NCBI GenBank assembly: GCA_051294375.1
Contig: CM119270.1
Location: 11,528,141 to 11,592,140 of the forward strand
Direction: 5' to 3'
Source of the DNA: Paraspadella gotoi
Taxonomy: Eukaryota; Animalia; Chaetognatha
DNA length: 64,000 bases
In this document: positions 6,079 through 55,571 of the stretch, piece by piece
Position numbering within the stretch: the first letter of the stretch is position 1
Layout: each line of letters starts with the position of its first letter
Made by a program: the position numbers and the translations under genes
Notes under the pieces: model-generated
Told to the model about the DNA's origin: nothing
Databases searched by the model: none
The model's input: only the letters and a program-made list of their open reading frames with translations

Positions 6079-6119
<41 letters not shown>

Positions 6120-6122
6120 GAA

Positions 6123-6170
<48 letters not shown>

Positions 6171-7364: not shown

Positions 7365-7453
<89 letters not shown>

Positions 7454-7552
7454 CTCTCTATCTTTTTTCCACGTGCTTTTAGGTTTTGAAGGCAATTTTT
7501 TCGTAGAAGCTCTATTTCTCCCTCTTTTTCCACTTTCTGTTTGGGTCTTTCC

Positions 7553-7670
<118 letters not shown>

Positions 7671-9183
7671 TTTTTATATTTTATCTTTCTCTTTCTCGAA
7701 GATTCTCACTTTCATCCCTCTGCTATCTTAGCTTTGCCTTATTTTTTCTCTTCCCCCTTCTCACCTCACAATTCTTTTCTTCTTTTTCCCTTTCCTCTCT
7801 TCGCATTCTTCTCGTATTCCTCCCTTCTCCAGCCTTCCCACGGGTTTCCCGGAACGAATTCCCCACCCCCGCCCCCATTTTTCCGGCTCCTTTTCATAAA
7901 AGCCGAGAAACTCTCCCGGGAAAATCGGCGGAAATCGTGAATTATCGCCTAGACCAATCAGAGCGGCGCAAGTGGTCAATGGAAGAAAGGTGGAGAAGAA
8001 AAAGGTAAGTGCGAAAGAAATGAGTTATGGTAAGGTTGGAAGGTCGATGGAGAGTGTGAGGTCTAAAAGAGGTAGATGAAGGTCGGACAGGTTAAGGTTC
8101 TTGTCAGATCATTTTTTTGTTATGAGTTGCGGATTGTACTAAGTGTTTTAATCACTGAAATATTTGTAGAAACATACAGAAATAAACAATCAAGTGGTTA
8201 TTCATAATTTAAAATTAGAACTTCCAACTTGGGCAGTCACATAATAATAAAAATTTAAACATTGTATTGATTCTTTCGAATCGTTGCGTTTTATTTAGAG
8301 ACGGAGTGATAAGTTTTTTATGGTTAAACACAACTTAAAAACAACGACATAAAGGTTTTTACTAGAAAACGGACATGCTTTGACGACAAATAGTCGATTT
8401 TTAAGTCAAATATTTATTCACTTTTCTTCTCTTCGTTAAAACATGAAAGTAGGAAAAAGAAAGTGAGATGAATGAAAGTGGAAAGGAGAAAAGGACGAAG
8501 CTGAAAGAGAGAATTATTTGGAGGTGAGAGGGAAGAGTTGAAAGGTCACCGAAAGGAAGTGTTGCTGACTCTAAGTTGGAAAGCGAAGAAGTTGTTTGAT
8601 TTTTCACAGGGGAATCACTCTCACTAATTCTGCTCCCGCGTTCCTGCGATGACGTTAAAAGAGCGCGAAATTTGTGTGTGTGAGACTGTGAGTGAGTGTG
8701 TGTGTGTTTGTGTGAATGATTGTAGGCCGAGTTGATTGGAAATGAATGGAGGGAAAATATGAAGTATCCAAGTCAAACTTCGTTTGAATAAAAGACTCAG
8801 ACTTTTGTTTTCACGTTATAAAAGAAAATTTATTTAATCCGAACTGATTTTGAAAGAAATATTATACATACAATAAAACTGAATTCAGCACATGAAAAAT
8901 TGAATTAGCTTTTAAAACATTTATATTAAATGTGGCAAGGTCATAGATTTATAAAATAACCCCATCGCTTTGAACCATTTCCCTTCGATTCACCGATTTC
9001 TCCTCCGCGCCATCTCTCGGATTGGACCCAACGATGTTTGATCCGAGCGACCGAACCGATTGGAGGCAAAGGAGCGAGGTGAGAGGGATTATGATCGAGA
9101 GCCGAGACCAGGGAAAAACCAGGAGATGAAAATTTAAGGGTTTCGGCCGGAAGAGGAAAAAAAACCCGAGATTGAGCGAAGGT

Positions 9184-9275
<92 letters not shown>

Positions 9276-9283
9276 GAGTGAGG

Positions 9284-9315
<32 letters not shown>

Positions 9316-9323
9316 AAGAGAGA

Positions 9324-9359
<36 letters not shown>

Positions 9360-9616
9360 AGGAAAAAAAATGGCGGGAAAATGGGAAAGGAGAGAAGAAG
9401 AGAATGAAAATGATGGAGGAGCGATGAGGAGGAGGATGAGGAGGAGGATTAGAGTGACCCCATCGACCGAAAGACCATCCCTCATTTTCGCTGCTTCGTC
9501 CTTCTTTCAACACTCCTCGCCAACGCCAGCGCGACACTCCCGTTTCTCCACTTTTCAAGTCAACGAAGAGAATGTCTTTATCGTCGATGGCATAATCTTT
9601 CGTTTCACAGTCGAAA

Positions 9617-9667
<51 letters not shown>

Positions 9668-10295
9668 GGTTTTGCAGAAATAACATTCTATTTCATATAC
9701 GTTATCCTATCCTATATGTTTCCTCCCCTGTTTCCTATATGTTTTTATTTTGTTTTTTATCATTTGGAAATATATTCAGGTTTCGATATTAAAATTATAA
9801 CTGTTGGATGATGTTGCATTGTTTAAAAAATCATTAAACTATCTGTAATTTCTCTCACTTGAAAAATGAATCAATTTAAAAGAGATTGAAATATAAATTA
9901 TTAAAAAAATCCCCTCCGGTTTCATGAGATTTCCGTTTCCAGAAGTGAAATAACCTAATCTTCGTCCTGGATTTTACACTTTTTTTCTCCTTTTTTTTTA
10001 GGCTCAAGTTTTTCGATAATCACCACTCCCCGTATTTCTCCGCCCATTTTTTTTTCTTCCAAGTTCCAACCATCCTTCAAACTTTCCTCCTCCCACTTTC
10101 CCACATTTTCGTCTGCTCCCGGGATTCCACTTTTCCACTTCCCATCGCATTTCCATTCACAATTCCATCTCACCCCATCTTACAAACTTCAAATTTCTCA
10201 CAGACACCCGCTGGTCCCTTTTCACAGTTTTCTTCCTGGAAATTTCCCGCTTTCTTTCACACTATTTTCGTCTATTTTGTATTTGTTTGTTTTTT

Positions 10296-10380
10296 GCGCT
10301 GATGAAGACTTACATTGAAGTCGAAAAATGTCCGAAAGATATGTTTCTTAATAAAACTCGTTGTACGTCAACAAATAATT
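10296..10380 (+). ncRNA. Hammerhead-ribozyme-like motif with Penelope-like pLTR tail
   Basis: CTGATGA-A-GACTT-ACATTG-AAGTC-GAAA-AATG-TC has an intact core. The downstream AATAAAACTCGTTGTACGTCAACAAATAA resembles the tail of the 46918-47080 element. Confidence 0.55.
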
Positions 10381-11075
10381 CATTTATATATCTCGTCTAA
10401 TTTACTCCACAATTTTTCCCCCTCCTCCACCAGCATTTTCCAACTTTTTCATTTTCCCCCTCGCCACCCCCATTACCACCACCACGCCCACCTCCATCTT
10501 CCCCACTTTTCCCCAGCCGCGGCACCAGGTCTCCAAAGCCTTCGCTCTCTCCTTTGTTCTAAATCACCATCTCAATTTGGGCTCTCGCGCGATTGAACGG
10601 GAGCGCCCGGACTGACGCAAGATGGAAGGAGGAGGGAGGAAGGGAGTAAAGAAGAGGAAAAGAAAAGAAGGGGCAAGAAATAGAGAGGATAGAAGGTCGG
10701 AGTGAGATGTGAGATAGTAAATAAGGCAAGAGGGAAGAATTAGGATTTAAAAGAAACCAGGTGAAATTATTTTATGTCAAAATAGATCAGGTAGGGAACA
10801 AAGGATTAGGTGAGACTGCAAAATGTAATGAATTGTAATGTAATGTAATGTAATTTAATGTAATGTAAGGTTGAGGGATTAAAAAATTAAAAAATATTTC
10901 GAAAACTAAAAGAAAGAAAGAGAGACAATGGGAGAATCAGAGACGGAGAGAAAAGAAGAGCGAAAAAAAAAGAAAAAGAAAGATTGCAACAAGGAACCAA
11001 GGAAAAGACAGGAAATTCGTCTGGCAACTGTTTTTCGATTTTTTCGTCATCCTATTCTGACTGATTGTCTCGCAG

Positions 11076-11119
<44 letters not shown>

Positions 11120-11802
11120 AGAGAGAAGAGAGGAGAGGAGAGAGAGAGAGAGCCGAGAGAGAGAGAGAGAGAGAGAGAAAGATAGATAGAGAGAATTCAT
11201 AGTTACATACATCTTAATGATTCTCCCGCCAACCGTTTATGATCGTCTCCTTAATTTCGTCTCGATGTCTGTGAGGCTTTCACCCTCCGGCCAAAAATCA
11301 CTCAACTCACCATCTTTATTCTCACGCGGACGTTCTCACTAACTTCACGTATTTCATAAAGATATTCATCTCATTTGCCAATTCCATTTCTTGTCATATT
11401 ACCCGCGGGAGTCCGGTCGCATTATTTCTGACTCAATGAATTGAAAGGAATAATATTGATCGCTACAACGTTTTTTTTACAATTACGCTGTTCAACAAAA
11501 TTACTATAATCTGATTTCAAGAAATTCAAATAGTAAACAAAAAAATTACCCATTTTTGCTATGAACTCACAATCTCCAATAAATGTAAATCAGTTCTAAA
11601 TTTAAAGCTCTGTTTTTTATTCCCAGGACTTCTTGTACACAAGGAACTTATGGGCCGAGACGTAAACGACCCTTCCACTCCAGTTTAACTCCCATCCTGG
11701 CTCAAACGCGCCCATCCTCCCCCCTCTCATCCGGTTCCATCCTATATTTGCCTTTCCCAAATCCATCTTCATCACTCTCTGTCACGCTTTTATCAATCAC
11801 AC

Positions 11803-11854
<52 letters not shown>

Positions 11855-12877
11855 TATTATTATTATTATTATTATCATCACACTCATCACCAAATCCATC
11901 TTCTTCACTCTCTGTCACGCTTTTATCAATCACACTCATCATTTCACTTTCCCTTCGATCTCAGCTTTCACTTCTCACTGTTCATTTTCAATCAGAGTTC
12001 CGGCTTCTTTACCGACCTCACCCCCACCTCGCCCACCATTTCTAATCCTCTCCAGGACCCCCAACAAATTCGATACCCCCCCCCACGATCCCCCCTGTCT
12101 CCTTTCCTCTCAATCAGGACCCAGAATGAAATCCCGCCCTCTGTCGCTGGTTTATGGACGTCATTTGGTTGTTAATGAGTAGGAGTCAAGGTAAGGAACC
12201 GGGAAAATGGTAACGCCTCTCCTGCCTTTTCAAAAGGCGCTTTCTATTCTTCTATCACCCCTCCTCTTTTTTACCTTTAGCCTCTTCTTCTTCCTCTTCC
12301 TCCTCCTTATCCTCTTCCTCCTCCTCCTCCTCCGTAAAAAAATCCTCATTAGAATTTCTTCTTTTTTTTCGTGCTTCAGCTTTGCTCTTTAATTTCAAAC
12401 TTCCCTTTTTATTTTTTTTCCTACATATTCCGGTATTAAATTTAAGACTAAAATAATAAGGAAAAAATTGCAATTTTTTTCCTGTAGGTGCAAGACAGGA
12501 AATGGTCGTGTATACTTATTTATTAAACAGAAATTCACAGCTGCGCTCAGTCTACTTATTACTTCCGGGCGAAACCAATGAGGGTTCCACTGACCTGTTA
12601 ATCATCCCGCGCATTGAAACGAGAACAACAACAACAAAAAACAAACGCGACAACAACGACACCAGTTAATCTGCAACGAAGCATTGCCAAGGGAAAGTAA
12701 TTGCTTTTTTTTTAACCATCGAAGCGAAACGTTATTTAAATATCTACTGAACAAATTACAAAAAGGAATGAGCCGAATTATCAAAATGAAATCGGTCTCT
12801 GAAAATGATAATAATAGCCCCCAATAAAAATTTAAAACCCGAATAGAATTTACATTTGTTTGAGACGTTCTCTTTTA

Positions 12878-31742: not shown

Positions 31743-32687
31743 ACTCTCTCTTTCTGTTTCTCTTTGTCTCTCAAAAGTTCCTTATATTTTAATATATTTT
31801 TAATTACTACAGAAATATTAATAACAGAAAAAGTAAGAAAAAAAGAATGACAAAAATAAAGATATAAAAAAAAAAATGAAAAAAATAAAATAAGAAAGAA
31901 AAAAAGAAAGAAAGAAAGAATTACTAATTATTATTAATTGAAATTGTTATTATTGATTAGTTGGTTAATATGTTTGTTTTAATTCCCTCTCTCTATCTTC
32001 TCTGATTGATTGATTGATTGATTGATTTTGACCCACTTAATAAAATATTTTTTTTAAACTTTTCGTGAGGAATTCGAATCTGCTTTTAAAAATAAGAAAA
32101 AAATATTTTAAAATTTCGACATTTTCTATGGTGAGTACTATGTATAATTATGGGCGTATGCAAAAATTCAAAAATATTTTTTTTTTATTTAAAAATATTT
32201 ACAGGTGTTCGTGATCGTTCGTGATCTGCTATTCGAATTTTGATTCCACTTGATTTGTATATTTTTGCTATGCTTAAGAATAGTAGACAGAGAGAGAGAA
32301 AGAAAGTGAGAGAGAGATAAAAAAATAGAAAAAAATTAAATAGAGTGAGAAAGAGGATAGAAATAGAGATAAAAAGAGAGAGAAAGAGAGACTGAACAGA
32401 GAGAGAAAGATATATATGAAAATAAAAAAAAGAGAGAGAGGTAAAAAGAGAGAGAGTGAGAGAGAAAGTAAGAGAGAGATAAAATAGAAAAAAGAAATAG
32501 AGTGAGAAAGAGAGAGAGTTAAAAAATAGAAAAAGAAAAAGAGAAAGGTAGACAGAGAGAGAGAGAGATAAATAAAATAGAGGATTTAGGAATGAATCTA
32601 AATGCAAATAAATTATTTATTTTTAAATTAGGATCGTAATGACATCGCAGGAGAATCAATTAAAATATTTTGTATAACAATGGACTC

Positions 32688-33107
32688 TGTTAGAAGAAGT
32701 TTCCGTCTCTCTACGCCGCTCCAAGTAATATCAGTTGCGTCCAGGAAAGGCTCGGCTAAATTACCGCAACCGACAAGGCATCCCACTGACTCTATATCAT
32801 GAGTATAATCTCGAAGACAATGTAGAGAAATCATAAGTTAAATCCGAAGTATAATTCTAAGAAATGGACATCAATAATCCGACATATAATCCAGTAATAA
32901 TTCGTTTAAAGCCAGCTGAAATGCCGTAGGAAAATGGTTAAAAATACGAGGGAAAATCGTTCCAAGCGAGCGGAATCTATCAAAACTGGAATTCGTGATC
33001 CAAAGTCTGACTGCAGGTTGACCGGGGGAGAAGAGGAGAGAGCTTGAGAGAGATATCTCAGTCTCTCCGGTCCACAAACTATTCTGTGGGCCACTGGTTC
33101 TCTTTCA
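32688..33107 (-). repeat. 3' LTR
   Basis: TGTTAGAAG...CTCTTTCA. Aligns along its length with 37049-37480. Confidence 0.88.
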
Positions 33108-33124
33108 CCCCACCTCACTTTTTC
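33108..33124 (-). other. Polypurine tract of the LTR element
   Basis: Plus-strand CCCCACCTCACTTTTTC lies directly inside the left LTR and reads GAAAAAGTGAGGTGGGG on the minus strand. Confidence 0.75.
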
Positions 33125-35099
33125 AAGTGGACCACAAAGGGCCACACAGGACCAGTGGTCAATCAAACTGGGTTCTCAATCAATCAATGTTTCCCTCGGT
33201 AATGGCTACAAGATTCAAAATCTAATGACTAGATAAAGGTTTGACCAAAAAAACTAAAAAAACCACCATGATCTGTGTGAAAAACTAAAAAAAGGGGCCA
33301 TTTTCCCGTTTCGGTTTGACGCCTATGATTCCACATTTCAGGCTTCCATTCGTGGCGCTCCTTTTTGTTCAGTTTGAAGCTTCCTCCAGAGGGCCCCGGC
33401 GATGTTGCTGTCTTTGAATCCGCATCATGGCACCGGGCTGCCTGTCGTTTCTTCGCGTCGCGTCATAGTTCAATTTGCTTTCTTTAAAAGATAAGGTTAA
33501 TGGCGAAACAAAGCAGCAGTCTTTGTTTTCTAAAATGTTTTGTTTCAATCATTCAAATCAATTCATTTCAAATCAATCTTGTGTTCATGTCAAACCAATT
33601 AAATTACAAAATATTTCATTTCTAAACCAAAATCACACTCCCCCCGTTAATTCTTTTCCGGACGTCCGCCTGACGTCGGCCGTGGTCTGCGTGCTTCTTT
33701 TGCTTCAAATTTTGCTCGTTCCAGCTCGTGATATAGGGGAGTCATACATAGAAACGATCTGATAAACTCAAAAGACAGTGCAGGGGAAAGGAAAAGATGT
33801 AAAAATTAATAAAGATTTACAATATCTTTTATACATGAAACTATGTTAATGTTATATTTCGTTTTTCAAAAAATTTATTCTAAATATCCCCTTTTATGGA
33901 GAGTTATCTCGTTCTAAAAAAATGAAACATTCATTTATGGCCTAAATAACGTCTCACCTCTGTGTTTAAGTCAATATGGAAATTTTGATCCTTTCAGTCA
34001 CAAAATATTCGGACAATGCTTAGTGGCAGCTCATACTTTTCAATTAGGGATGATAACCCAGTCTGTTGTCAAAGGTCTAGTAATTCATTCAAGGGATACA
34101 ATCATTGGATGATGATTTCCAATCAGGGATAAATTTTGATAATCCAATCAAAATCAAAAGGTTCTTCCAATTCTTTGAGGTTCCTGATTCCTGTAGTTTC
34201 ATAATTCATAAGAAACCATCAAAATGTTTTATCACAGAAGGGTTCAAATAACTTCCCCACGCCATGGCATTGAAAGATAATTGTCGTAAACATGTAAAAT
34301 TTCAACCATCCATGAACGGTAAACAGCCACCAAAAGTATTTTTTTTAAATAAAATTATTCTTATTTTACTTGTTTATATTTAATGATACTAATGAATCTT
34401 AGAAGCACCTATCTACGGCCCCCGAATAGATAAGCATTTCATAAATAAAATAGATATTTTTAATGAAATAGAAAATTACAACTAAAATTATAATTAATTT
34501 CATTCATTAATTAATCATCACATTTCATTAATCATCACATTTTAGCGGCCATGTCCAAAATTGAACCTTCCTCATTTCATACGGCTGCAACCAAAAATGA
34601 TTGCATCGCCGTCCGTAGCCAAAGGTTCCATTGCTGGCTGCTAAGCATTCATTTGACAATGGTCGCCTGCAGAATTCGGCTGACTGTTGCCGCGTGGTCG
34701 CCTCCTGAAATAGGCTGCGGTGCCGGCAGTCGCCTCCTGAATTTCCTGCGTCGCCGTAGTTGGAATTTTTGGCTGCGTGGCGTCGATCCCCATGCCTCCT
34801 TCTAAAGAGATTAGGACATATAAGATCAACGCTCGCCTCTGCTTTAAACGGAGTGATGAGCCAATATTTTGAGTCTTCTTAAAATAAATTCTTTTGGTTT
34901 CAATAGTCTAGTTTTTCCTTTAACTTTTATGAAATCTATGAACGATTATTTGCGAAAAATCGGCTGCGTTGCGCTCGGCCGCCTTCCAAAGAATGGCTGC
35001 GGTTACCGGGCGGCCGCCTCCTGAGCTCCTGCCGATCATAGTCGTCTGTTGAATAAGGCTTAAATGGTATGGTTTCTATGTTCCTAGTTGGACAATGCA

Positions 35100-36297
35100 T
35101 TCCCTAGTATGGATGGCAATGTGCCTAACAATTTTCTTCTTGCTTAGTGGAATTGGACTTGACATGTTGAAGCCCTCCCATCAAAATTCTTATTCTTTCT
35201 AATTCGTGTTTTTGTGCTTAATTGGACATCACCCAATTAAGAAAGCTCATCAAAGGTCAAAACCACACATCACATAAAACTATGATCTCGTCCCTATTGC
35301 GAACTCGTATCATAGTTACTATTTTCCTCTATCCTCCTTCCTATCACACTCCATAGCCCCCAAACTGATTGGCAGTTCTTTTCTGTTTTTTCTTGTTCTT
35401 GTTGTTTGTCTTTAAATACATCATGAAGGAATTGGATGATGTCTTGTCCGGCATCTTTGCATATTTCTTGTGAATGACAATCTTGCAAAGATGCCTTTTC
35501 TGACACATTTAAAACACAATTCCTTTCCTTGTATGGCAAAACATTTGCCTCTTGATTTGGAATCAATTTTCTTTGAAAGCTGATGCAACTCTCTATATAA
35601 TGTTTTTCTTTTGCCAATGATAGAGACACATGCTGTTTTTTACCATACCTGTTTTTTCAGTTTGCAATTTGATTGTTCTTTTTCCTTTTTCGGTGGAGAC
35701 GAAGTGCCATGAAATTCGGGTTTCAACATTCACAACTGTACCGCCCAACCATTGAGGGTTCTTGGGCGAAGAAAAGCAATAGTATTTGGTGGGTTCAGAT
35801 GTATTATCGTTCGCCCCCACCACTTAAGAATGGGTGCAGAGAGAAGATGCTCGAATTTTTCTTTTCTTTCATTTTCGATGTTCTTTCTTTTGTAGAATCG
35901 AGTTCTTCTCTGAGTTGCTTAATTTCAAGTTTCAATAATTTTCTTTTATTTTCAATATAAGCCTCAGAGACAGCTCTTTTGATCACGTCACAATATTTAT
36001 CTGGTTCTCTTCAAATTGGGCAAAACTTCAGTCTTTCAGTTCATCAAAACTATATTTCCAAGCATAATTCATCTGCTCTAATCTTTCAAAGAATAGAGCT
36101 TGACTGAATAGTCACAGAGGAGTTTTGGAACTAGAGGAAATAGAAGCCCAATTCATTTTTTCATCTTTCACTAACACACTTTCCCGTTCCTTGACTTTTT
36201 CTTCTGGAGCTTGGGTCCCTCCAGAATAGACTAGGGCCTCACCAATGGTCTCTGCAGAAAGAATGGTTGTCATCTGGGAAGAGAGTGTTTGCGCCAT
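35100..36297 (-). pseudogene. Frameshifted gag-position ORF of the LTR element (coiled-coil rich)
   Basis: Chain of co-oriented, non-repetitive ORF fragments at 36297-36112, 35986-35804, 35823-35593 and 35629-35294, about 750 nt downstream of the PBS. Contains charged helical segments (KRKLLKLEIKQLREELDSTKE). No diagnostic motif recognised; the 3' boundary is approximate. Confidence 0.5.
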
Positions 36298-37036
36298 TTT
36301 TGCATCTTCTTGCTTTGAGCACGAAGGTTACTTGAAAAGTTTCGTGAAGCTAAGGTTGGTTTTTCTTTGAGGCCCAGTTTCACGGTATCAGCGAAATCAA
36401 CTTTCCAATGTCTGCAAACCGCCTTTCGTAATACCGTTAGGGCGTGCAATCCTTTGCTTGTTCAATTACGTGTTAAATCATTGAGGGACATCCGAAAAGA
36501 GAAAAACGAAAAAGGAATTAGGAAAAGTTTTAAAAAATATCAAACAAAATCAAAGATCAGAAATCAAATTCGAATTATTCAATCAAACTATTTAATTCCA
36601 AATTCCAAATCATTGATAAAATTAAAGTGTTATAAATAAAATAAGCGTAAACTCTCTAATTTTAAACGTTTCAATAATCATTGTTATCGGTATTTATTTT
36701 ATTCTGTTCAATTCTTTAAAATTTAATTTTGTTTTCGTAATTTTCGTAATTTCTGCAAGAGTGATCATAGAAATCAATCAATCCAAGAAAACCCAATCAT
36801 GTTAAAAATTCGAATTCAATTTCTAATAATTAATCAATCATTTAATCAGCATGAATCAATCATTCAATCTCAAAATAAATCAATTCATTCTATCATATCC
36901 GACAATCACTTGACTCTTCCGTGCTTAACGTCCCGTTGCTTTGTAGAAAGGCGTGACCCATCTGCAATTCAGACGTTAATTTCTAAATCAAACTGAATCA
37001 CCTGAGAAGCGATTGCTTGTTTCCGAATGGGAAAAT

Positions 37037-37048
37037 CCATTTTCCTAC
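37037..37048 (-). other. Primer-binding site complementary to the element's own LTR (candidate self-priming PBS)
   Basis: Minus-strand GTAGGAAAATGG directly follows the 5' LTR. Its complement lies within the LTR on the same strand: plus GTAGGAAAATGG at 32926-32937, with an indel variant at 37293-37306. Confidence 0.65.
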
Positions 37049-37480
37049 TGTAGAGAATTTTTCCGTCTCTCTACGCCGCTCCAAGTAATATCAGTTGTCC
37101 AGGAAAGGCTCGGCTAAATACCGCAACCGACAAGGCATCCACTGATCTCTATATCATGAGTATAATCTCGGAAGAACAATTGTAAGAAGAAATCATATGA
37201 GTAAATCGAATGTATAATTCTAAGAAATGCCATTTCAATAATTCCGACATTATAATCCAGTAATAATTCGTTTTAAAGCCAGGTAAAATGCCGTAGGAAA
37301 AATCGGTTAAAATACCGAGGAAATATCGTCCAAGCGAGCGGAATTCTATTCAAAACTGAATTTCGTGATTCCAAAGTCTGGACTGATGTGTTGACCGGGT
37401 GAGAAGAGGAGAGAGCTTGAGCAGAGTATCTCAGTCTCTCTCGGTCCACAAACTATCTGTGGCCACTGGTTCTCTTTTCA
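37049..37480 (-). repeat. 5' LTR
   Basis: TGTAGAG...CTCTTTTCA. Same sequence as 32688-33107 with many 1-nt indels. Confidence 0.88.
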
Positions 37481-38037
37481 GGACTCCCCATGAATAAACA
37501 GATCTTTAGTGATTTGTGGCGGCGATGGGCTTCAAACGTTAATTCCCCATCAAAAATAGTGCGGGGATTCCCCGCATGGATAAGGCAGAGGGCTTCAAAC
37601 AGTGATCCTCGTAAAAAATAGTGGCCGGGATTCCCCAAACAGGCAAAAAAAAAAGTTTTCGTGAACAGAAAGAGGCGCAGTTCAACTGTCCCCTTATAGG
37701 CAGTTCAACTGCGCCTTATTGGACGGCGTCATACTGATCTAGACTTATAGTTACAACGGGCTGAATCTTTCAGTACGTATGATAAAATTGTACCGAGACT
37801 CGTTCGCCAACAAATCAAAAAAAAAAAATAAAAAAAAAAAAAACTCGGATATCCGAGACTCGGAGGCGCAAAAAGACAATCGCTTTTCGGTCGGAGAAGA
37901 GGCAAATCAGGCGCCCGGCAGATAAACATAATGACAATAGTATATTTTTCTTTGGCAGTTCGAACGAGGAGAGAGAGAGAGAGGGAGAGGGAGGAGGGAG
38001 GGAGACGGAAGGCGGAGGAAATTAAATCGAGTAGTGT

Positions 38038-38667: not shown

Positions 38668-39589
38668 AGCAACCTCTTAAAATTTATTTCCGAAAATAAA
38701 TTCAACTTATTTAGTTGATAATGATTAATTATTTTACCGAAATAGAAAATGTTTACGGAAGAAAATGCCTATAAGCAATAAAATTACTAAAAGATCGTCA
38801 CTCTTTATAAACGCGGACAAGTGTAAAACGACAACTTTTATTTGTCGGATTGATTTAGCGTAACGAAATCGTCATTAATCACTAGTTATCTCCGCAACAT
38901 AATTGGGATTAAACGATTAAGGCAGTGCGAGGCTTCGACATTTGTTGAATAAATTAATTTTTCTCTTTCCTCGAGAAATCTCGAGTGAAAGAAGTGAAGA
39001 ATTTTTCATCTCCAAATCATCAGATCAGGAAAAAAATATTGAGGAAAAACGATTGTTCATCGGAATCCATTTCCAAAATTATTTTTGGTCCTTCTCTTTT
39101 TTCCTTCCTTTCCTGCTTCTTCTCTTTTTACTCGTTTTATCTTTTCTTTAATCTTCTTTCTTTTCCTCCCTCTGTCTTTTCTCGAATTAACTCTTTACTA
39201 GTTTGTTATAGTATCACAACTTTATACTAGATGCTATCCTACGTTACCTCTTAACTTTTTATGTCTTCTCTTCGATCTTCTTCTTCTTTTTCTTCTTCTC
39301 CTTTTTCTTCTTCTCCTGAAATCTTCATCTTCAAACCTTGATCTGAAATCGGATGGTTCTCCTTCATCGGCTCCTTTTCCACCTGCTGCGCTTCTCACTC
39401 CAGTTTTTCTCCTCATCCTCCCGTTATTTACCAAGAACGCCCCATTTTGTCTTAAATTCGGAATTGGGTTATTATTTTACCTAAAGATTAGGTATGGGGT
39501 TAGGGTTAGAGATTTGGTTAAGAATTAAGATAGGGAACAAGGTTAGAGACTTGGTTTGTGATTCGGGTTAAGGAATTTGGTTAAGGACT

Positions 39590-39832
39590 TGTAGTTGGGC
39601 ATTGCATAAGTTCACCCCGCTTATAACCCTGACACCTTTGGTCGTGACCCGGTGGCTCATTGAAAAAAGCCATCAGCTCATGACCACTAGGTACCGGGTT
39701 CTATTGAAGACGCCCATAAGACCCTTTGAGGGCCTGAAAAAACCATCAAGCCTGGTTCCAAGTCCAGCACACGTTCCATTGCTGCAGAAGGGGCAAAGAA
39801 GTTACGGATAGTAGTCTTTAGCCCACTTAACA
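39590..39832 (-). repeat. Dispersed repeat B (longer copy) within a GGTTA-rich tract
   Basis: 39731-39829 matches 25566-25627. Weak terminal inverted similarity TGTAGTTGGGC / GCCCACTTAACA. The left boundary is tentative. Confidence 0.5.
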
Positions 39833-40425
39833 ATTAACACCTTATCCGCAGTATTTGGGGTTAGATATTAAGGTTAGAAATTCGGGTTAAGGGTTAAGGT
39901 TCAGGATAAGGTTTAGGTTTGGGAGGTTAGGGATTAAGGTTAAGGATTGCTTAATCAGTTTATGAACATATTAAATATTAAGTTAAAATTATATTCTGGG
40001 ATAAAAGAACAGAAATGGAAAAGAGAGAGCCCCCCATCTTTGTCTAGTTTCTTTGTCCTAATTTCTCTAGTCCTAGCTGTAGTGATCTGGAGGTTTTGAT
40101 AGATTAAAATACAATCATGCCTTTCATGCCTTTCATGCAGAATGTCTTCGATCATACCTTCCCAACGATTTCATTCATTAATTCCCTGTTAGGTTATCAC
40201 TCATCCTCGTTGTAACAATCTCTATCTTCCCCATCTTTTCTTCCGTTCACTTACCCTCCATCGATTCATTCATTTCCCCGGGCAGAAGACTGGATGTCGT
40301 CTGCTTAATTGATTTCTTTCTCAGCGAAGAATTTCAATGATTTTATTTCCTTTCTGCAGAGACCGAAGACACACACGCACACACACAAAAGTCAAAATCT
40401 ATTATTCATCTCTCACTTTGTGATT

Positions 40426-43543: not shown

Positions 43544-43640
43544 TTTAAAATGATTACACAAAACGAAGAACACAAAATTATTGATTATTTAGATTATCAC
43601 TAACGGCGCAAAAAATTAGACATATTAATTTATGATTAAG

Positions 43641-45386
43641 GAAACCTTGTCGGTGATTTCACTCGCTTCATCTACGGCAAGCATCGCAAATACTGCATCA
43701 AACTTGAGGTGGAGTTTGTCAGCATCATTACACCGATACCCAGCGAGCCTGGTTAAAGTCTTCGACCTAATGCAGTGCGTGATGGGCTTGTGCGCATGTT
43801 TTTACATCGTTATAGTTTACTGCGCAAAAAAATCAGAAATGATGTTGATTTTGTTGCCCATCGCCTTTTTCCGAGTTTTTTCTCTCCATGAAATTAGAGA
43901 GGTGATGAGAATTGGAAAAAGAATATTGAAAATTGAACCGAAGGAATTTCGTGGCTCTAGGAAGAAGAGATTCCACGTCGAGGGACTTTCGCAATCTTCA
44001 TTCGTTAGCCTTTTCATGTTATCTTTTTTTTTCTTCGTCGAATTTCAAGAGGCCATTACTTCTCATTCCTTCTTCATGCCAGCGGAAAAAATTAATTGGG
44101 GTTTGAGTTACTTGAGACCAAATTCTGCTCGACTGTTGTTTTACTCACACGTATTGATTCCTCCACGTTTACGCGTAGGTTGCGTGAAAATAAATGGGGA
44201 AAATCGAAAATCTAAGTGGGATAGGATATCTCTCCGTTTTTTCAGAAATGTCAGTGTGGTACAATGTCGAAATCCTGTGTATTACTCTAAAGGCGAATAC
44301 GTTAAAAAGAATCCGTCCATGAGATTAAACCTTGGAAACTACTCATTTTTGGTACCTGAATCTGCAACTTTGCTTCTCCTCATTTTATTCGATCTATTGG
44401 TCAGCCTTTTAAACATTTCCTTCGTAGCTGTCTCTACTAAATCTTTTTTCCGTTTTTTACCGAGACTTTTATCGATATTAAGCGTTATTATTTATATTTT
44501 GTCTTATTTAGAACTGACGCGTATTTATAAATCTATAATACATCGTCCAGACAGACACTCTTTTACTTATAGCATGCAACAGGCATCAATGGAATTGCAA
44601 CTAATGCTTTACAGATATTCCAATTTGCTCGTAACTATTTCTAACTTCGGATTGTCTATCATTTTAATTTTTATTGTGAAGCAAAGTAAATTCGTAATCG
44701 GATACTATAGTTTCATTTCAGTTTTTTCTCTCTGTTTGTGTTTTTTAGTTGTAATATATCGATTAAAAAGTTTAAACGAGAAAGACATTTTAAATTTATC
44801 AAACCAACTTTGTCTTTCAAATCTCAGTGATCATCGTTCGAAATTAACTTTTAAAAAAATTCACATTCAACTATTTACTTTTAAATTCGTTTCAGACAAT
44901 TTCCCCGTATTAACCATTGCGGTACTTTTACCACTCCTGAAGATATTGTACCGTTTCAAGTCTGAAACCAGGGCCGCTTCACGCAAATTCTCCTTCGTTT
45001 TACTTGTGGCAATTCTCTATATTGGTATTGACATATTTTTTCAAATTTCATTGCGCAAAAATCCGCCGAAAGTGTCGAAAGTCTCTAGAGGTGCATTCGA
45101 TGCCAAATCTTTTCCATGGCGCAGTGAGCTTTTAATGTACAAACCAAACTATCAGTTACATTCTTCTGAATTTTATTACATAGAACCGTTTAGTAGAATG
45201 ATTGACTTTTGTTTAAGAACTCAATTAGGCATTCGCCCGTACGCTTTTAAAATATTGTCTTTAACTAATTTTTCGAAAGACAACAAAGAAAATTTGAAGT
45301 TAATAATTGGTCATGACGACAACAAATCAAATATGTTAAATTTAGTATTTTTTGTCATCCCATTTTTACTGATTTATTCTATTTAA
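43641..45386 (+). CDS. XK-related protein, exon 3 (long terminal exon, multi-TM)
   Basis: Part of the 584-codon ORF 43632-45386 with many hydrophobic helices. Starts ETLSVISLASSTASIA, like the S-rich helix that follows the PQL motif in XK proteins. Phase-0 acceptor TAAG|GAA at 43640 gives a product of about 800-823 aa. The exact acceptor is uncertain. Confidence 0.8.
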   Translation, partial: ETLSVISLASSTASIANTASNLRWSLSASLHRYPASLVKVFDLMQCVMGLCACFYIVIVYCAKKSEMMLILLPIAFFRVFSLHEIREVMRIGKRILKIEPKEFRGSRKKRFHVEGLSQSSFVSLFMLSFFFFVEFQEAITSHSFFMPAEKINWGLSYLRPNSARLLFYSHVLIPPRLRVGCVKINGENRKSKWDRISLRFFRNVSVVQCRNPVYYSKGEYVKKNPSMRLNLGNYSFLVPESATLLLLILFDLLVSLLNISFVAVSTKSFFRFLPRLLSILSVIIYILSYLELTRIYKSIIHRPDRHSFTYSMQQASMELQLMLYRYSNLLVTISNFGLSIILIFIVKQSKFVIGYYSFISVFSLCLCFLVVIYRLKSLNEKDILNLSNQLCLSNLSDHRSKLTFKKIHIQLFTFKFVSDNFPVLTIAVLLPLLKILYRFKSETRAASRKFSFVLLVAILYIGIDIFFQISLRKNPPKVSKVSRGAFDAKSFPWRSELLMYKPNYQLHSSEFYYIEPFSRMIDFCLRTQLGIRPYAFKILSLTNFSKDNKENLKLIIGHDDNKSNMLNLVFFVIPFLLIYSI

Positions 45387-45900: not shown

Positions 45901-46917
45901 AATTTAATTTACTGTTTGAGCTGCCTCGACTTTATGGGTGACTTTCAATATGGCAACGATTGTGGTTTCAAATTAAGTTTGTTTATTACAAATTAAAAAC
46001 AGTCCAATAATTAAGTCCACAAAATCATAAAAAAGTCCTTTAAATATTAACAATGGTTATAAACTAAGTATGGTGGACTCAAATCCACCAACCGTTCATT
46101 AGCGGCCATTGGTGCTGGAGGCAAGTCATTCGCCTGTCCCAACTAGTGTTCCGATAACCGTTAACAGTTAACGGTTATTAACGGTTAAAAATAATTTTAA
46201 CTTAACCGTTAATATATTTATTTTAACGGTTAAATTCGGTTAATTTTCAAGTATAATTTTTGTTATGAAAACTTTGATTTTTTAAGAAAAAAATTTTTTT
46301 TCCTTATTCTCCTCTCCCTTTCTCACTATATTTTTCCCCCTCTCTCTGTTCTACATTTTCCCCTATTTTTTCTTTGTTATTTTCAACCCTTTTAATCTTT
46401 TTCTATTTTTAATCTATTATCATTTTTTTCTGCCCTTCCGGTATTTTTTTTACTTACTTTCTCCCAATTGTTTTCGTTTTTCCTTTCAGCTAATTAAGCA
46501 TTTACATCAAAGAATATTTTGAAATATAATATGCATCTGCATATATTTTTTTGCAAATCAAATTTTTACATGCAACAATAATATTCTATTTTGCTAATAA
46601 AAAAATAAATAATCTTTCTTCTTTTACTTTTTTTAGCTTTTTCTTTCAATTTTTAAAATGAACAAAGAAGTAAATATAATAAAGCCGAATGAATGAAAAA
46701 ATTTAAAAAAAAACTAAAATAAAAAAATTTTAGAAAACATTAAAAAATGAACAATAGAAGGAATGAATCTTTGAAAAGACAAGCTAACTAAAACTATCCT
46801 TCAATGATGATATACTTTACTTTAATAAAATTTAAAAAAAATATTTATTAATTAATAACTCTTTTGATCAATCGATCATTTAACAATTCAATTAATAAAT
46901 TGATATTCATAATTAGA

Positions 46918-47080
46918 GAAAACAAAGTTTATTTGTTTACAAACAACCGGTTTTTATTCCAAAAAACGGACATGTTTCGACTCTAGTTTTTCCGAGTCTA
47001 CATCAGCGCGTGAGAGTCGAAACATGTCCTTTTTTTAAAAATAAAAACCTGTTGTTTGTAAACAAATAAACTTTGCTTTC
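46918..47080. mobile_element. Inverted-repeat fragment resembling a Penelope-like pseudo-LTR pair
   Basis: ~67-bp imperfect arms (46918-46984 and 47013-47080), each containing GAGTCGAAACATGTCC...AATAAAA. A hammerhead-like core lies on the minus strand. Confidence 0.55.
46966..47010 (-). ncRNA. Minimal type-I hammerhead-ribozyme-like motif (core variant)
   Basis: Minus strand reads CTGATGT-A-GACTC-GGAAAAACTA-GAGTC-GAAA-CATG-TC: 5-bp stem II and palindromic CATG loop III. The core deviates from CUGANGA at A9. Confidence 0.5.
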
Positions 47081-47772
47081 ACTTAACTATAAACGTAACG
47101 AAAAGAAAGTCTTAATACAATATTATAATTATATTTATATTTATGGTCATGGTTTATGAAAGACTAACAACAGAAAACATGCTTTCAAGAAACTAACAAC
47201 TATAAAAATAATGAGGAAGAGAAATAGAAAAAGGAAAAGCAAAAACGAAAGAAAGAAAGAAAAAGAGAGAAAGAGAAAAGAAAAATATACAGAATTAAAA
47301 TTACATTGTGCTTTTTCTTTCATTGTCTTTTTTCATATTTTTATTATTGCTATGAGGCAAAAAAAAATTTATTATAATGCTGTTTTTTCAAATCAATTTT
47401 CTCATTTATCAACTATAATGTGTACCTCATCTATCTGAAATAAAAGATAAAGACTATTCAGTAGCCGGAGTTAAGGAGAAAATACCATTAAATACTTTAG
47501 TTAGTTTCAAATATTAATATTTTAAATTAAAAGTTAAATTATTAAAATTAACCGATATTTAACGGTTAACGCTTAAAAACGTTAGTTTTAACGGTTAAGC
47601 GAAGTTCCTCAAAAATTAACGGTTAAACGGAACCCTACTCCCAACCCAAAGGTCCGGGGTTCTAGCCCGGTGGTCGCCTGGCATTTAAGAAGGACGGGGC
47701 GCCTAACCTGCCTGTAACACGGTGTTACAGCCTGAGACTGCTTATATTGAATGGTTCTGTCACTAACACATA

Positions 47773-47890
47773 TCTTATCTTGTAAGAGTGATGGAGGCCT
47801 TAAACCACCAAAGCCTGTCCAAAGTCAGGGGGAAGATAGCTTATTTATTAAATGAATGGATAATTTTATATTGGTTGTACTAATTTCATA
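47773..47890 (+). repeat. Dispersed repeat A inside SINE copy 2 (bounded by CATA direct repeats)
   Basis: Absent from SINE copy 1 between CACATA and ACAAT. CATA occurs at 47769-47772 and 47887-47890. Mirror copy at ~53780-53896. Confidence 0.7.
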
Positions 47891-48778
47891 ACAATACTTA
47901 CTGTCTTTTCAAAACAGTAATAAAACCGTACGGCGTCGGAGGCAACTGCCCCTGACTCGTAAGATTCTATACATTTCAAAAATAATCGGGATATTCCCGG
48001 TTTCACGTTTCTTCTTCGTCTTTATAATCGTCGTCGCGTTCTCTCTCTCTATCTCTCTCGAAACTGAGCAAAGTAAGACGGCGATATTGAATCCACGACC
48101 GTCGGACTTCGAGCCACTTTTCTCCCTCTACGGTCACGCCCAAACGAAGCCATGACCGTAAATACATTTACTTTTATTATTTAAAACTTTTTTTAAATTT
48201 CTTTCGGTACTTGTAAATTCTCATTTTTCTTAAATAATAAACTTGTAGATATAATCGTCCAGTAAAATTCCTTCTAATTGATTTATCTTTATTTATCATC
48301 GTCCTGATTATTTATCAGACTGACCGAAAAGCAAAGCCTCCTACAGAAAATCGAGCAAAGGCATTAGTCGCAGGCCTCGATTTATTACACTTCGGCTACT
48401 GAGACGTAGTAGATTAATTTTAATCGGTTCTGGGTTCTTCCCACTCACCAGTCCCGATACATCATCGATTCAAGTCAATAGTATTCTAACTCTGATTAGC
48501 CAATCCTATATGAACAGATTTATCTATTTCTTGTCATGAAGCGCATTATTTTTCTCTGGATGCGACTTGCCATTCAGTATTCCAATACACTTTGGTCCAT
48601 TCTGCACTATTTTGCTCTTTATAGATAACCCAACTAGTATAAAAGAAAGAGACACCTGGTGATGAATGATTCACTTGTCAAAGTCTAAAACAGAAGAACA
48701 TCGATAAAGCCAGAACGACAACGACTTGAACGACGCGAAACAATTTTCCTTAGCTGAGAGGTAATTATAGCTATTCTG

Positions 48779-48861
<83 letters not shown>

Positions 48862-48969
48862 CAGTGGACACTGTCACAAATCATTTTCGAAACCATGGTC
48901 CTGTTAAAACAAGAATTCACGTCCACCCTCCATAAAACCCTGAAGCTCTCACGCGCTCCATTTTACAGT

Positions 48970-49089
<120 letters not shown>

Positions 49090-50006
49090 TCCTCATCCAA
49101 CAGCGTCTTTTATATACCTATAAAGATGTCATTGCCAAGCTTACGAGAGACGAATTGCTAAGCGATGCCCGGGTTTTCAGAAATTGGCGCTACGCCAATT
49201 GAACGCTGAGTATGGCGCTCCGCCACGCTGGATATGGCGTAACGCCACGCGGGAAGAGAATAAAAACAAATCCGTTGACGAAGCGAAAACCCCGACGGAT
49301 GTAGTTTGACGGGGGGGGCGGTAAAAGCGGGGGGGGTGGAATGGGGGTGGAACGGTCGATTGCTCCGGAGACATGAGCCAACTTGATTGCGGGGACGAGC
49401 TTGGAAAAAAAAAGGTGAAATTCATTGGAAAAGAGTTGCGTGAAAAACGTCGGGATGATCGCTTTGCACACAACAAGTGTAATTGCTAATAAAGAAACAA
49501 AAAACAAAAAAAACCGAAACTGTTGCCAGGATCAAATTTCTACTCTCCCCTAATCTTTTTCATCAACTGACTTTCTTCTTTATATTCGAAGTTGTTATAG
49601 CGGTTTATAGCTTTAAGCCACTCATTGTGAAGCTCTCTGGCTTGTTGTCTTACGACGGCTCTCAATTATTCTCACGCCGATCGAGCGCCACGCATACGTG
49701 TTTTCCGCAAAATTGTTTTTATCCATTATTTTTGGGCTTTTTCTAGTTTCAGTCTTGAAATCATTTTCTTTTTACGAAACGTTAGTCTTTATCATGGTTG
49801 TCCTTCTCGCTCGTTTCGTCCTGTTTTCGGGCTTTGTCCTCGCCGTTGACGTGGACAAACGCCAGAAAAGACATTGAAAGGCGGAGAGGTAATGACGGTT
49901 GAGTAATGACAATAGATAAATGACAATGACCGAATTGTGCGAAGGAAAAGACGTTGTTCCCTCTCTCCTTTATTTCGAGCGCAAGAGAGAGAGAGAGAGA
50001 GAGGAG

Positions 50007-50078
<72 letters not shown>

Positions 50079-50315
50079 GACTTCGTGAAAAATAAACAGG
50101 TAAACGATCTGCAAGCAGCGACCCTTTTAGAACAGGAGGAACAAACGAGAACGACGGGGGAGGAAAGCTCAATTTTTCCTAAACGTGGAACTCTTAACTT
50201 AGGTCGTAATTAGTAATATTTACTACTAAATTGCTACATCTATCATATTTAAAGAACATACAATCCAAGACGGGACAAAAAAGATAATCTACGTAAAAAG
50301 ACGTAACTTTTGTAT

Positions 50316-50515
50316 AGCAACTAAACAATCAGACATCAAGGAGATACCTAAAGCAACTAAACAATCAGACATCAAGGAGATACATAAAGCAACTAAACAA
50401 TCAGACATTAAGGAGATACCTAAAGCAACTAAACAATCAGACATCAAGGAGATACATAAAGCAACTAAACAATCAGACATCAAGGAGATACCTAAAGCAA
50501 CTAAACAATCAGACA
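50316..50515 (+). repeat. 36-bp minisatellite, ~5.5 units (mirror at ~51158-51358)
   Basis: Unit AGCAACTAAACAATCAGACATCAAGGAGATAC(C/A)TAA, with alternating C/A variants. Confidence 0.9.
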
Positions 50516-50793
50516 ACAACAAACGTTAAATCTTAAACCGCAAAAAGCGCTGGCGTCTAATCTTTACATTTTGCCAGAGGCCCCCATTGTACCGAGGCAG
50601 ACAAAACAGTTTCACAGATTGCAAATTCGAGGAGAAACCCAGAGGGGGAGCCCGGGGGCCTGCAGACAAAATTTTCTCAGAGTGAAATAGATTGGGTTGG
50701 TGGACTGAAAGTGGGACGATGGAAGGCAGAGGGAGAATGAAGGAGGATGTTATAAAGGGAGAGAGAGGATGGATGATAAGAATTGAAACTCTC

Positions 50794-50883
<90 letters not shown>

Positions 50884-51597
50884 TCTTTCAATTCTTATCA
50901 TCCATCCTCTCTCTCCCTTTATAACATCCTCCTTCATTCTCCCTCTGCCTTCCATCGTCCCACTTTCAGTCCACCAACCCAATCTATTTCACTCTGAGAA
51001 AATTTTGTCTGCAGGCCCCGGGCTCCCCCTCTGGGTTTCTCCTCGAATTTGCAATCTGTGAAACTGTTTTGTCTGCCTCGGTACAATGGGGGCCTCTGGC
51101 AAAATGTAAAGATTAGACGCCAGCGCTTTTTGCGGTTTAAGATTTAACGTTTGTTTGTTGTCTGATTGTTTAGTTGCTTTAGGTATCTCCTTGATGTCTG
51201 ATTGTTTAGTTGCTTTATGTATCTCCTTGATGTCTGATTGTTTAGTTGCTTTAGGTATCTCCTTAATGTCTGATTGTTTAGTTGCTTTATGTATCTCCTT
51301 GATGTCTGATTGTTTAGTTGCTTTAGGTATCTCCTTGATGTCTGATTGTTTAGTTGCTATACAAAAGTTACGTCTTTTTACGTAGATTATCTTTTTTGTC
51401 CCGTCTGGATTGTATGTTCTTTAAATATGATAGATGTAGCAATTTAGTAGTAAATATTACTAATTACGACCTAAGTTAAGAGTTCCACGTTTAGGAAAAT
51501 TGAGCTTTCCTCCCCCGTCGTTCTCGTTTGTTCCTCCTGTTCTAAAAGGGTCGCTGCTTGCAGATCGTTTACCTGTTTATTTTTCACGAAGTCGCTC

Positions 51598-51662
<65 letters not shown>

Positions 51663-52575
51663 CTCCTCTCTCTCTCTCTCTCTCTTGCGCTCGAAATAAA
51701 GAGAGAGGGAACAACGTCTTTTCCTTCGCACAATTCGGTCATTGTCATTTATCTATTGTCATTACTCAACCGTCATTACCTCTCCGCCTTTCAATGTCTT
51801 TTCTGGCGTTTGTCCACGTCAACGGCGAGGACAAAGCCCGAAAACAGGACGAAACGAGCGAGAAGGCAACCATGATAAAGACTAACGTTTCGTAAAAAGA
51901 AAATGATTTCAAGACTGAAACTAGAAAAAGCCCAAAAATAATGGATAAAAACAATTTTGCGGAAAACACGTATGCGTGGCGCCGATCGGCGTGAGAATAA
52001 TTGAGAGCCGTCGTAAGACAACAAGCCAGAGAGCTTCACAATGAGTGGCTTAAAGCTATAAACCGCTATAACAACTTCGAATATAAAGAAGAAAGTCAGT
52101 TGATGAAAAAGATTAGGGGAGAGTAGAAATTTGATCCTGGCAACAGTTTCGGTTTTTTTTTTTTTTTGTTTCTTTATTAGCAATTACACTTGTTGTGTGC
52201 AAAGCGATCATCCCGACGTTTTTCACGCAACTCTTTTCAATGAATTTCACCTTTTTTTTTCCAAGCTCGTCCCCGCAATCAAGTTGGCTCATGTCTCCGG
52301 AGGCAATCGACCGTTCCACCCCCATTCCACCCCCCCCGCTTTTACCGCCCCCCCCGTCAAACTACATTCCGTCGGGGTTTTCGCTTCGTCAACGGATTTG
52401 TTTTATTCTCTTCCCGCGTGGCGTTACGCCATATCCAGCGTGGCGGAGCGCCATACTCAGCGTTCAATTGGCGTAGCGCCAATTTCTGAAAACCCGGGCA
52501 TCGCTTAGCAATTCGTCTCTCGTAAGCTTGGCAATGACATCTTTATAGGTATATAAAAGACGCTGTTGGATGGGG

Positions 52576-52696
<121 letters not shown>

Positions 52697-52805
52697 ACTG
52701 TAAAATGGAGCGCGTGAGAGCTTCAGGGTTTTATGGAGGGTGGACGTGAATTCTTGTTTTAACAGGACCATGGTTTCGAAAATGGATTTGTGACAGTGTC
52801 CACTG

Positions 52806-52885
<80 letters not shown>

Positions 52886-54029
52886 CAGAATAGCTATAAT
52901 TACCTCTCAGCTAAGGAAAATTGTTTGCGCGTCGTTCAAGTCGTTGTCGGTTCTGGCTTTATCGATGTTCTTCTGTTTTAAGACTTTGACAAGTGAATCA
53001 TTCATCACCAGGTGTCTCTTTCTTTTATACTAGTTGGGTTATCTATAAAGAGCAAAATAGTGGCAGAATGGACCAAAGTGTATTGGAATACTGAATGGCA
53101 AGTCGCATCCAGAGAAAAATAATGCGCTTCATGACAAGAAATAGATAAATCTGTTCATATAGGATTGGCTAATCAGAGTTAGAATACTATTGACTTGAAT
53201 CGATGATGTATCGGGACTGGTGAGTGGGAAGAACCCAGAACCGATTAAAATTAATCTACTACGTCTCAGTAGCCGAAGTGTAATAAATCGAGGCCTGCGA
53301 CTAATGCCTTGCTCGATTTTCTGTAGGAGGCTTTGCTTTTCGGTCAGTCCTGATAAATAATCAGGACGATGATAAATAAAGATAAATCAATTAGAAGGAA
53401 TTTTACTGGACGATTATATCATACAAGTTTATTATTTAAGAAAAATGAGAATTTACAAGTACCGAAAGAAATTTAAAAAAAGTTTTAAATAATAAAAGTA
53501 AATGTATTTACGGTCATGGCTTCGTTTGGGCGTGAACCGTAGAGGGAGAAAAGTGGCTCGAAGTCCGACGGTCGTGGATTCAATATCGCCGTCTTACTTG
53601 CTCAGTTTCGAGAGAGATAGAGAGAGAGAACGCGACGACGATTATAAAGACGAAGAAGAAACGTGAAACCGGGAATATCCCGATTATTTTTGAAATGTAT
53701 AGAATCTTACGAGTCAGGGGCAGTTGCCTCCGACGCCGTACGGTTTTATTACTGTTTTGAAAAGACAGTAAAGTATTGTTATGAAATTAGTACAACCAAT
53801 ATAAATTATCCATTCATTTAATAAATAAGCTATCTTCCCCCTGACTTTGGACAGGCTTTGGTGGTTTAAGGCTCCATCACTCTTACAAGATAAGATATGT
53901 GTTAGTGACAGAACCATTCAATATAAGCAGTCTCAGGCTGTAACACCGTGTTACAGGCAGGTTAGGCGCCCCGTCCTTCTTAAATGCCAGGCGACCACCG
54001 GGCTAGAACCCGGACCTTTGGGTTGGGAG

Positions 54030-55518
54030 TAGGGTTCCGTTAACCGTTAATTTTTGAGGAACTTCGCTTAACCGTTAAAACTAACGTTTTTTAACGGTTA
54101 ACCGTTAAATCGGTTAATTTTTATAATTTAACTTTTAATTTAAAATATTAATATTTGAAACTAACTAAAGTATTTAATGGTATTTTCTCCTTAACTCCGG
54201 CTACTGAATAGTCTTTATCTTTTATTTCAGATAGATGAGGTACACATTATAGTTGTATAAATGAGAAAATTGATTTGAAAAAACAGCATTATAATAAATT
54301 TTTTTTTGCCTCATAGCATAATAAAAATATGAAAAAAGACAATGAAAGAAAAGCACATGTATTTTAATTCTGTATATTTTCTTTTTCTCTTTCTCTCTTT
54401 TTCTTTCTTTCTTTCGTTTTTGCTTTTCCTTTTTCTATTTCTCTTCCTCATTATTTTTTATAGTTGTTAGTTTCTTGAAAGCATGTTTTCTGTTGTTGTC
54501 TTTCATAAACCATGACCATAAATATAAATATAATTATAAATATTGTATTAAGACTTTCTTTTCGTTACGTTTATAGTTAAGTGAAAGCAAAATTTATTTG
54601 TTTAAACAACAGTTTTTATTTTTTAAAAAAAGGACATGTTTCGACTCTCACGCGCTGATGTAGACTCGGAAAAACTAGAGTCGAACATGTCCGTTTTTTG
54701 GATAAAAAACCGGTTGTTTGTAAAACAATAAACTTTGTTTTCTCTTAATTATGAATATCAATTTATTAATTGAATTGTTAATGATCGATTGATCAAAAGA
54801 GTTATTAAATTAATAAATATTTTTTTTAAATTTTATTAAAGTAAAGTATATCATCATTGAAGGATAGTTTTAGTTAGCCTTAATGTCTTTTCAAAGATTC
54901 ATTCCTTCTATTGTTCATTTTTTAATGTTTTCTAATAATTTTTTTATTTTAGTTTTTTTTTAAAATTTTTTCATTCATTGGCTTTATTATATTTACTTCT
55001 TTGTTCATTTTAAAAATTGAAAGAAAAAGCTAAAAAAAGTAAAAGAAGAAAGATTTATTTATTTTTTTATTAGCAAAATAGAATATTATTGTTTGCATGT
55101 AAAAATGTGATTTGCAAAAAAAATATATGCAGATGCATATTATATTCAAATATTCTTTGATGTAAATGCTTAATTAGCTGAAAGGAAAAACGAAAAGAAT
55201 TGGGAGAAAAAGTAAGTAAAAATACCGAAGGGCAGAAAAATGATAATAGATTAAAAATAGAAAAAGATTAAAAAGGGTTGAAAATAACAAAGAAAAAATA
55301 GGGGAAATGTAAGAACAGAGAGAGGGGGGAAATATAGTGAGAAAGGCGAGAGGAGATAAGGAAAAAAAATTTTTTTCTTAAAAATCAAAGTTTTCATAAC
55401 AAAAATTATACTGAAAATTCAACCGAATTTAACCTTAAAATAATATATTAACGGTTAGATAAAATTTATATTTTTAACCGTTAATAACCCGTTAACTGTT
55501 ACGGTATCCGAACAACTA
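54030..55518. mobile_element. Mirror copy of the hAT-type element in the right arm of the palindrome
   Basis: Reverse complement of 46144-47637, flanked by GTTGGGAG on both sides. Confidence 0.75.
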
Positions 55519-55571
55519 GTTGGGAGGCGAATGACTTGCCTCCAGCACCAATGGCCGCTAATGAACGGTTG

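Follow-up and report, generated by a model that had tools for sequence, protein, structure and literature searches.

Retrotransposons of the Tf1/sushi group are described as self-priming, and self-priming has been predicted for plant Tcn1 and for the plant TAR copia elements (PMC6317226). In Tf1, Tf2, Tj1, Tosmo, the Tf1/sushi group and plant Tcn1 (Ty3/gypsy chromoviruses), the primer-binding site (PBS) adjoins the 5' long terminal repeat (LTR), does not start with TGG and is complementary to a short stretch of the LTR itself (PMC4600332, PMC10085805, PMC6317226). In the TAR lineage of plant Ty1/copia (Houba, Osr-1), outside Tf1/sushi, self-priming is likewise predicted from LTR-PBS complementarity (PMC6317226), which implies that it arose more than once. 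Here we analyze a window of 64,000 nucleotides (nt) from the chaetognath Paraspadella gotoi (GCA_051294375.1, contig CM119270.1, 11,528,141 to 11,592,140). It contains, at 32688-37480 on the minus strand, an LTR element with the same arrangement, in a superfamily and a host kingdom other than those of TAR copia. From its sequence and from folding models we conclude that this non-autonomous element probably uses Tf1-like self-priming, in which its own RNA, complementary to the PBS, would serve as the primer.

The 12 nt that adjoin the 5' LTR without a spacer, GTAGGAAAATGG (37048-37037), carry no TGG at the junction, and their exact complement lies at 32937-32926, positions 171-182 of the 420 in the LTR. 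Since these 12 nt are contiguous, no splicing of the primer needs to be invoked. The corresponding motif of the 5' LTR (37306-37293) contains two extra letters and retains a 9-nt perfect match. A published rule recognizes a self-primer by at least 10 nt of complementarity starting 0-5 nt after the LTR (PMC6317226); the element has 12 nt at offset 0, with a PBS-motif duplex energy of -16.4 kcal/mol. When the LTR was shuffled with its dinucleotides preserved, 39 of 100,000 shuffles reached a perfect complement of at least 12 nt starting 0-5 nt after the LTR. Among 3,930 internal 12-mers, only one has a complement in either LTR, namely the one adjoining the LTR. A preliminary description of this DNA had reported that the first 12 nt are not TGG-initiated, that an exact complement lies about 170 nt into the LTR, and that the match is perfect in the left LTR and interrupted by two extra bases in the right; all of this was borne out, the extra bases being likely assembly noise.

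The element as a whole has the structure of an LTR retrotransposon, with two direct LTRs ending in TG..CA, a polypurine tract (PPT) and a target-site duplication (TSD) whose 6 bp are within the 4-6 bp reported for LTR elements (PMC12440569). Its features, in 5' to 3' order on the minus strand, are as follows.

37481-37486, no strand: TSD, 5' side (6 bp), from comparison of the flanks
37049-37480, minus: 5' LTR, TG...CA, the noisier copy, from repeat alignment
37293-37306, minus: predicted self-primer, 5'-LTR copy with two extra letters, and predicted RNA 5' end (putative start site)
37050-37074, minus: 8-bp hairpin at the end of U5 (the unique 5' region), directly before the PBS, predicted by folding only
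37037-37048, minus: 12-nt PBS adjoining the LTR and complementary to the LTR motif, from sequence
36492-37036, minus: AT-rich leader, presumed non-coding from its composition
35681-36491, minus: presumed upstream gag from translation and position, with many frame shifts in the assembly and no family match
35375-35680, minus: BEL/Pao-type triple Cys-His box of gag, split over frames, with HH doublet and closing LH, from profile and by eye
33125-35374, minus: 3' internal region, with DTSS at 35311 as a possible protease remnant and no reverse transcriptase (RT), RNase H or integrase signal
33108-33124, minus: PPT, 15 of 17 purines, adjoining the 3' LTR, from sequence
32688-33107, minus: 3' LTR, TG...CA, from repeat alignment
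32926-32937, minus: predicted self-primer, 3'-LTR copy, perfect 12-nt complement of the PBS, from sequence
32914-32925, minus: stem starting right behind the primer and pairing with 32777-32787, predicted by folding only
32682-32687, no strand: TSD, 3' side (6 bp), from comparison of the flanks

The sequence GAGTCC stands on both outer flanks, and among lengths of 3-8 a duplication is found only at 6. The alignment of the two LTRs has 395 identical positions and 11 mismatches, and a further 40 internal columns are gaps, almost all of them single-base. The 3' LTR contains neither TATAA nor TATAWA, and neither LTR contains AATAAA or ATTAAA; the LTR element with its 6-bp TSD and the lack of an evident TATA box had both been anticipated in the earlier reading. 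Several stretches in and beside the element deserve mention in their own right. The 2.2-kb 3' internal region at 33125-35290 is covered by contigs of all four public sequencing runs considered below. Within it, a GC-rich imperfect tandem repeat of 32-35 bp (34660-34741) has no family match, and neither do the protein-looking stretches at approximately 34150-33880; the region may be an accessory open reading frame (ORF) of unknown kind. Short repeats occur within the 5' flank (37481-37720), whose bin shows the highest contig depth, so the element seems to be inserted in another abundant repeat.

Contigs from public runs provide an independent check on the junction. Each of the element's 30 bins is covered by contigs of four runs; relative to the window, these contigs carry small indels in the hundreds along the element. 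This indicates that the window is a noisy assembly and that the insertion is younger than the divergence between the LTRs would suggest. In four of four runs (X1, X3, X4 and X6, from three studies), contigs span the PBS with no listed substitution or indel. Over 37030-37095, X3 and X4 long contigs each depart from the window by a single letter and by a gap at 37059, and we infer that the differing letter adjoins the gap. At full depth, X1 and X5 both lack the two extra letters of the 5'-LTR motif (depth is 0 there in X2 and X4), and these letters are likely assembly noise. Several contigs stop at the LTR end with differing flanks, and in X1 the depth over U5 is approximately 3-4 times that over the PBS, a ratio that does not give a copy number; together these observations point to a multi-copy family.

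The predicted folding of the 5' RNA has the start of the molecule at the PBS. In the minimum-energy fold of the native RNA beginning at 37306, the start is paired with the PBS, and when a piece of the 3' LTR was folded with the leader as two strands, all 12 pairs had probabilities of 0.99-1.0, with a further stem directly behind the primer. An 8-bp hairpin is predicted at the U5 end, and U5 and leader are predicted to form, as an alternative, one duplex of about -14 kcal/mol that includes large loops. The junction pair formed with a probability of 0.96-0.99 for seven of the seven start sites tried, so that folding does not locate the start of the RNA. No Rfam family matched at gathering over the window, and the five weak matches over the element were far below gathering; hence there is no ribozyme family match near the predicted RNA start.

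If this reading is correct, replication would proceed by the following steps. Transcription by RNA polymerase II would begin at the motif or close to it, roughly 170 nt inside the 5' LTR; the first seven letters of the motif fit an initiator consensus, which would presumably place the start at the A and give a primer of 10 nt. The first 10-12 nt are predicted by folding to pair with the PBS, the last base of the primer standing opposite the base that adjoins the terminal CA of the LTR. In Tf1, a cut by RNase H frees the primer, which is later copied into a new PBS. By analogy, a nuclease, probably the RNase H of a partner element, would cut behind the paired stretch, and the 3'-OH would prime minus-strand DNA. 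The plus strand, begun at the PPT, would then copy the primer to give a new PBS, and the two sites would thereby stay complementary. Finally, the partner's integrase would insert the DNA, with the 6-bp duplication that is observed at this copy. The enzymes are likely to be borrowed in this way from an intact partner.

The affiliation of the element was judged mainly from its gag region. Inspection of 35630-35425 by eye shows three Cys-His boxes in pieces that fall in different frames; an HH doublet and a closing LH are present as well. The hallmark described for Pao-like Gag is a triple Cys-His box whose third member carries an HH doublet (PMC554778, PMC4580426), and the element shows this combination of the BEL/Pao group, its pieces being spread over different frames. 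A profile built from 38 non-redundant Pao-type knuckle regions, applied to six frames of the 64 kb, gave its best match at 35623-35375 (independent E-value 3.5e-6, 19.5 bits), and its second-best match fell in another frame at the same place. The frameshift-aware knuckle score was 89.8, as compared with at most 49.4 in 300 shuffles. For blocks 901-1846 of the polyprotein profile, the element scored 34-48 and its shuffle 35-43, while a held-out control element with 7% added indels scored 70-166; in these blocks the element has no profile signal for RT, RNase H or integrase. A DTSS motif occurs at 35311, and the protease block (LLDxG-type, 601-750) scored 40.7 against 31.4 when shuffled and 47.8 in the control; blocks 601-900 were insensitive in the control. 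Because there is no pol signal and only 2.3 kb of the 4.8-kb total lie behind the Cys-His knuckles, the element, judged on its sequence, is non-autonomous.

To see the ordinary state of such elements, we used a comparison set of 113 metagenome loci and two viral loci picked by one knuckle motif, in which six of six long ORFs checked match the Pao peptidase family PF05380. Of the 115 loci, 67 were at least 3 kb long and 29 of these had an LTR-like pair; 10 were dropped for lack of a shared CA end, identity under 90% or truncation by a cut, leaving 19 controls. Because a single assembly contributes 17 of the 19 and one motif selected them all, the controls indicate what is ordinary but not how frequent it is. 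TGG stands 0-7 nt after the LTR in all 19, a Tyr-like site is present in 18, and a self-complement longer than 7 nt is present in none. Their TSDs were 5 bp in 14 of 15 testable cases and 6 bp in none. A further 28 loci with no LTR pair and enough upstream DNA contained no self-complementary site tied to an LTR end, and the exact 20-nt junction pattern of our element matched no metagenome contig. As a separate observation, two related BEL/Pao loci of the set (L023, 2634-3119, and L005, 3943-4388) have in common an LTR-like block that starts TGTT and is 73% identical between them; it lacks a TGG site near its end and has a conserved internal complement of 8-9 nt, and neither locus sequence includes a 3' LTR.

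These comparisons place the element likely in the BEL/Pao group and not in Tf1/sushi. [quoted passage not shown] It differs from the Tf1/sushi group in its BEL/Pao-type gag box, in having no pol and in a best fold that lacks the 'pretzel'. As for traits of Tf1/sushi, no pol or chromodomain match to Pfam was found, which is a weak negative on frameshifted DNA for which no gypsy profile was run. Unlike described BEL/Pao elements, it has no RT, RNase H or integrase signal, and its TSD is 6 bp as against 5 bp in nearly all testable controls; a TSD of 5 bp is also reported for Tosmo and Tcry1. Achilles is described with a tRNA-Tyr PBS, whereas the PBS of our element does not begin with TGG. Since the 18-nt tRNA-type PBS of the family is lacking, with no TGG at the junction and none of 189 tRNA ends fitting, the element is likely a BEL/Pao derivative that departs from the family description and not a typical member.

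Several observations weigh against self-priming or against the placement in BEL/Pao. The placement depends on a single domain of a copy that is frameshifted, and the frameshift-aware profile gives 69.3 at the highest-scoring unrelated place in the window, compared with 89.8 for the element. Pfam and four protein searches were blank: with window frames, neither Pfam on six frames, three homolog searches, a representatives search nor Atlas returned a match, although these negatives are weak given the frameshift noise, and Pfam on four window ORFs gave only two sub-threshold matches. The ICTV profile of Belpaoviridae gives the family an 18-nt PBS for tRNA-Arg or tRNA-Gly (PMC8742986). Tf1 requires two more duplexes beside the PBS (PMC10085805), and the flanking duplexes of its 'pretzel' are absent from our minimum-energy fold; the whole 317-nt 5' RNA folds no better than shuffles (z -1.19). 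The PBS and motif are invariant among the contigs examined, and no autonomous partner was found in the DNA analyzed.

We considered whether the pairing of LTR and leader could have another role, such as a structural switch in packaging, dimerization or translation control, with a different primer in use. The pairing forms whatever the start site, so that folding alone is no proof of priming, and other predicted stems surround it. However, the helix stops exactly at the terminal CA of the LTR, the one position that a minus-strand primer needs; moreover, next to the LTR we found no alternative primer site, and controls with a tRNA-type site show no LTR-leader pairing. We consider a switch of this kind unlikely. 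Chance, or the noise of the assembly, is an explanation that the run of four T in the motif and the error-rich window might invite. It is largely refuted, and we give it almost no weight, given how few shuffles reach such a complement and given that the independent contigs agree at the PBS and improve, rather than worsen, the 5'-LTR match.

Priming by a host tRNA could occur with its 3' end at the TGG that begins 9 nt after the LTR, not far from the control spacers, which reach 7 nt, or with half a tRNA bound to the first 12 nt, a mode of priming known from copia lineages (PMC6317226, PMC10886601). Yet none of 189 animal tRNA 3' ends (supplement of PMC13524379, an incomplete table that is not from this host) ends in the needed letters, while a control PBS was recovered in the same table as tRNA-Tyr. 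By the general rules for tRNAs, four U would stand at the start of such a tRNA, a run that would resemble an RNA polymerase III stop, and the 12-mer misfits an anticodon stem-loop. A tRNA would also leave the 12-nt match in the LTR unexplained, and we regard this alternative as very unlikely, more so than a structural switch.

Self-priming thus remains the reading that we prefer, and its signature has four kinds of support: geometry, statistics, folding, and an identical sequence in independent contigs. To that extent the preliminary description, which had proposed a self-priming family, is partly supported. It had further suggested that the 6-bp TSD could mark an independently evolved lineage. 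An origin separate from Tf1/sushi is likely, because the element with its BEL/Pao gag box is likely BEL/Pao. The TSD does not carry that part of the proposal: it differs from the 5 bp of 14 of 15 controls, yet lies within the normal range for LTR elements, and as the duplication of one insertion only it cannot define a lineage.

The window contains other features apart from the element. A tandem duplicate of 5 kb (2306-7248 and 7255-12248, 93% identical) and an inverted duplicate of 4.7 kb (46089-50788 and 50886-55571, 98%), which stops at an N gap, are both probably assembly artefacts. On the plus strand, a stop-free frame of 585 codons in AT-rich DNA (43629-45386) has a membrane-rich look; Pfam gives no match above the cut-off, and Atlas only a lead of 0.75. 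The stretch 39491-39946 consists of degenerate GGTTAGGG/GGTTAAGG repeats that resemble telomeres. ARAGORN predicts tRNA genes neither in the window nor in any of the 115 comparison loci.

In the literature searched, whose coverage excluded most subscription journals, Repbase Reports and GyDB, we found no report of self-priming in BEL/Pao, and a term search of PMC3118150, PMC2774666 and PMC8556966 returned no mention of primers or PBS. With some reserve, we favor the view that BEL/Pao has a self-priming branch, here with a 6-bp TSD, in which tRNA priming was lost independently of Tf1/sushi and of the plant TAR copia elements, so that self-priming would occur in all three classic LTR superfamilies and be successful in animals. 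If true, such a branch would change the tRNA-primed description of Belpaoviridae, whose replication is called 'poorly understood' (PMC8742986), and would bring the independent origins of the mechanism to three. It would also account for those BEL/Pao elements in which no PBS is called. Finally, 3'-tRNA fragments are reported to target the tRNA-type PBS (PMC12853362), and self-priming elements would lack that target.

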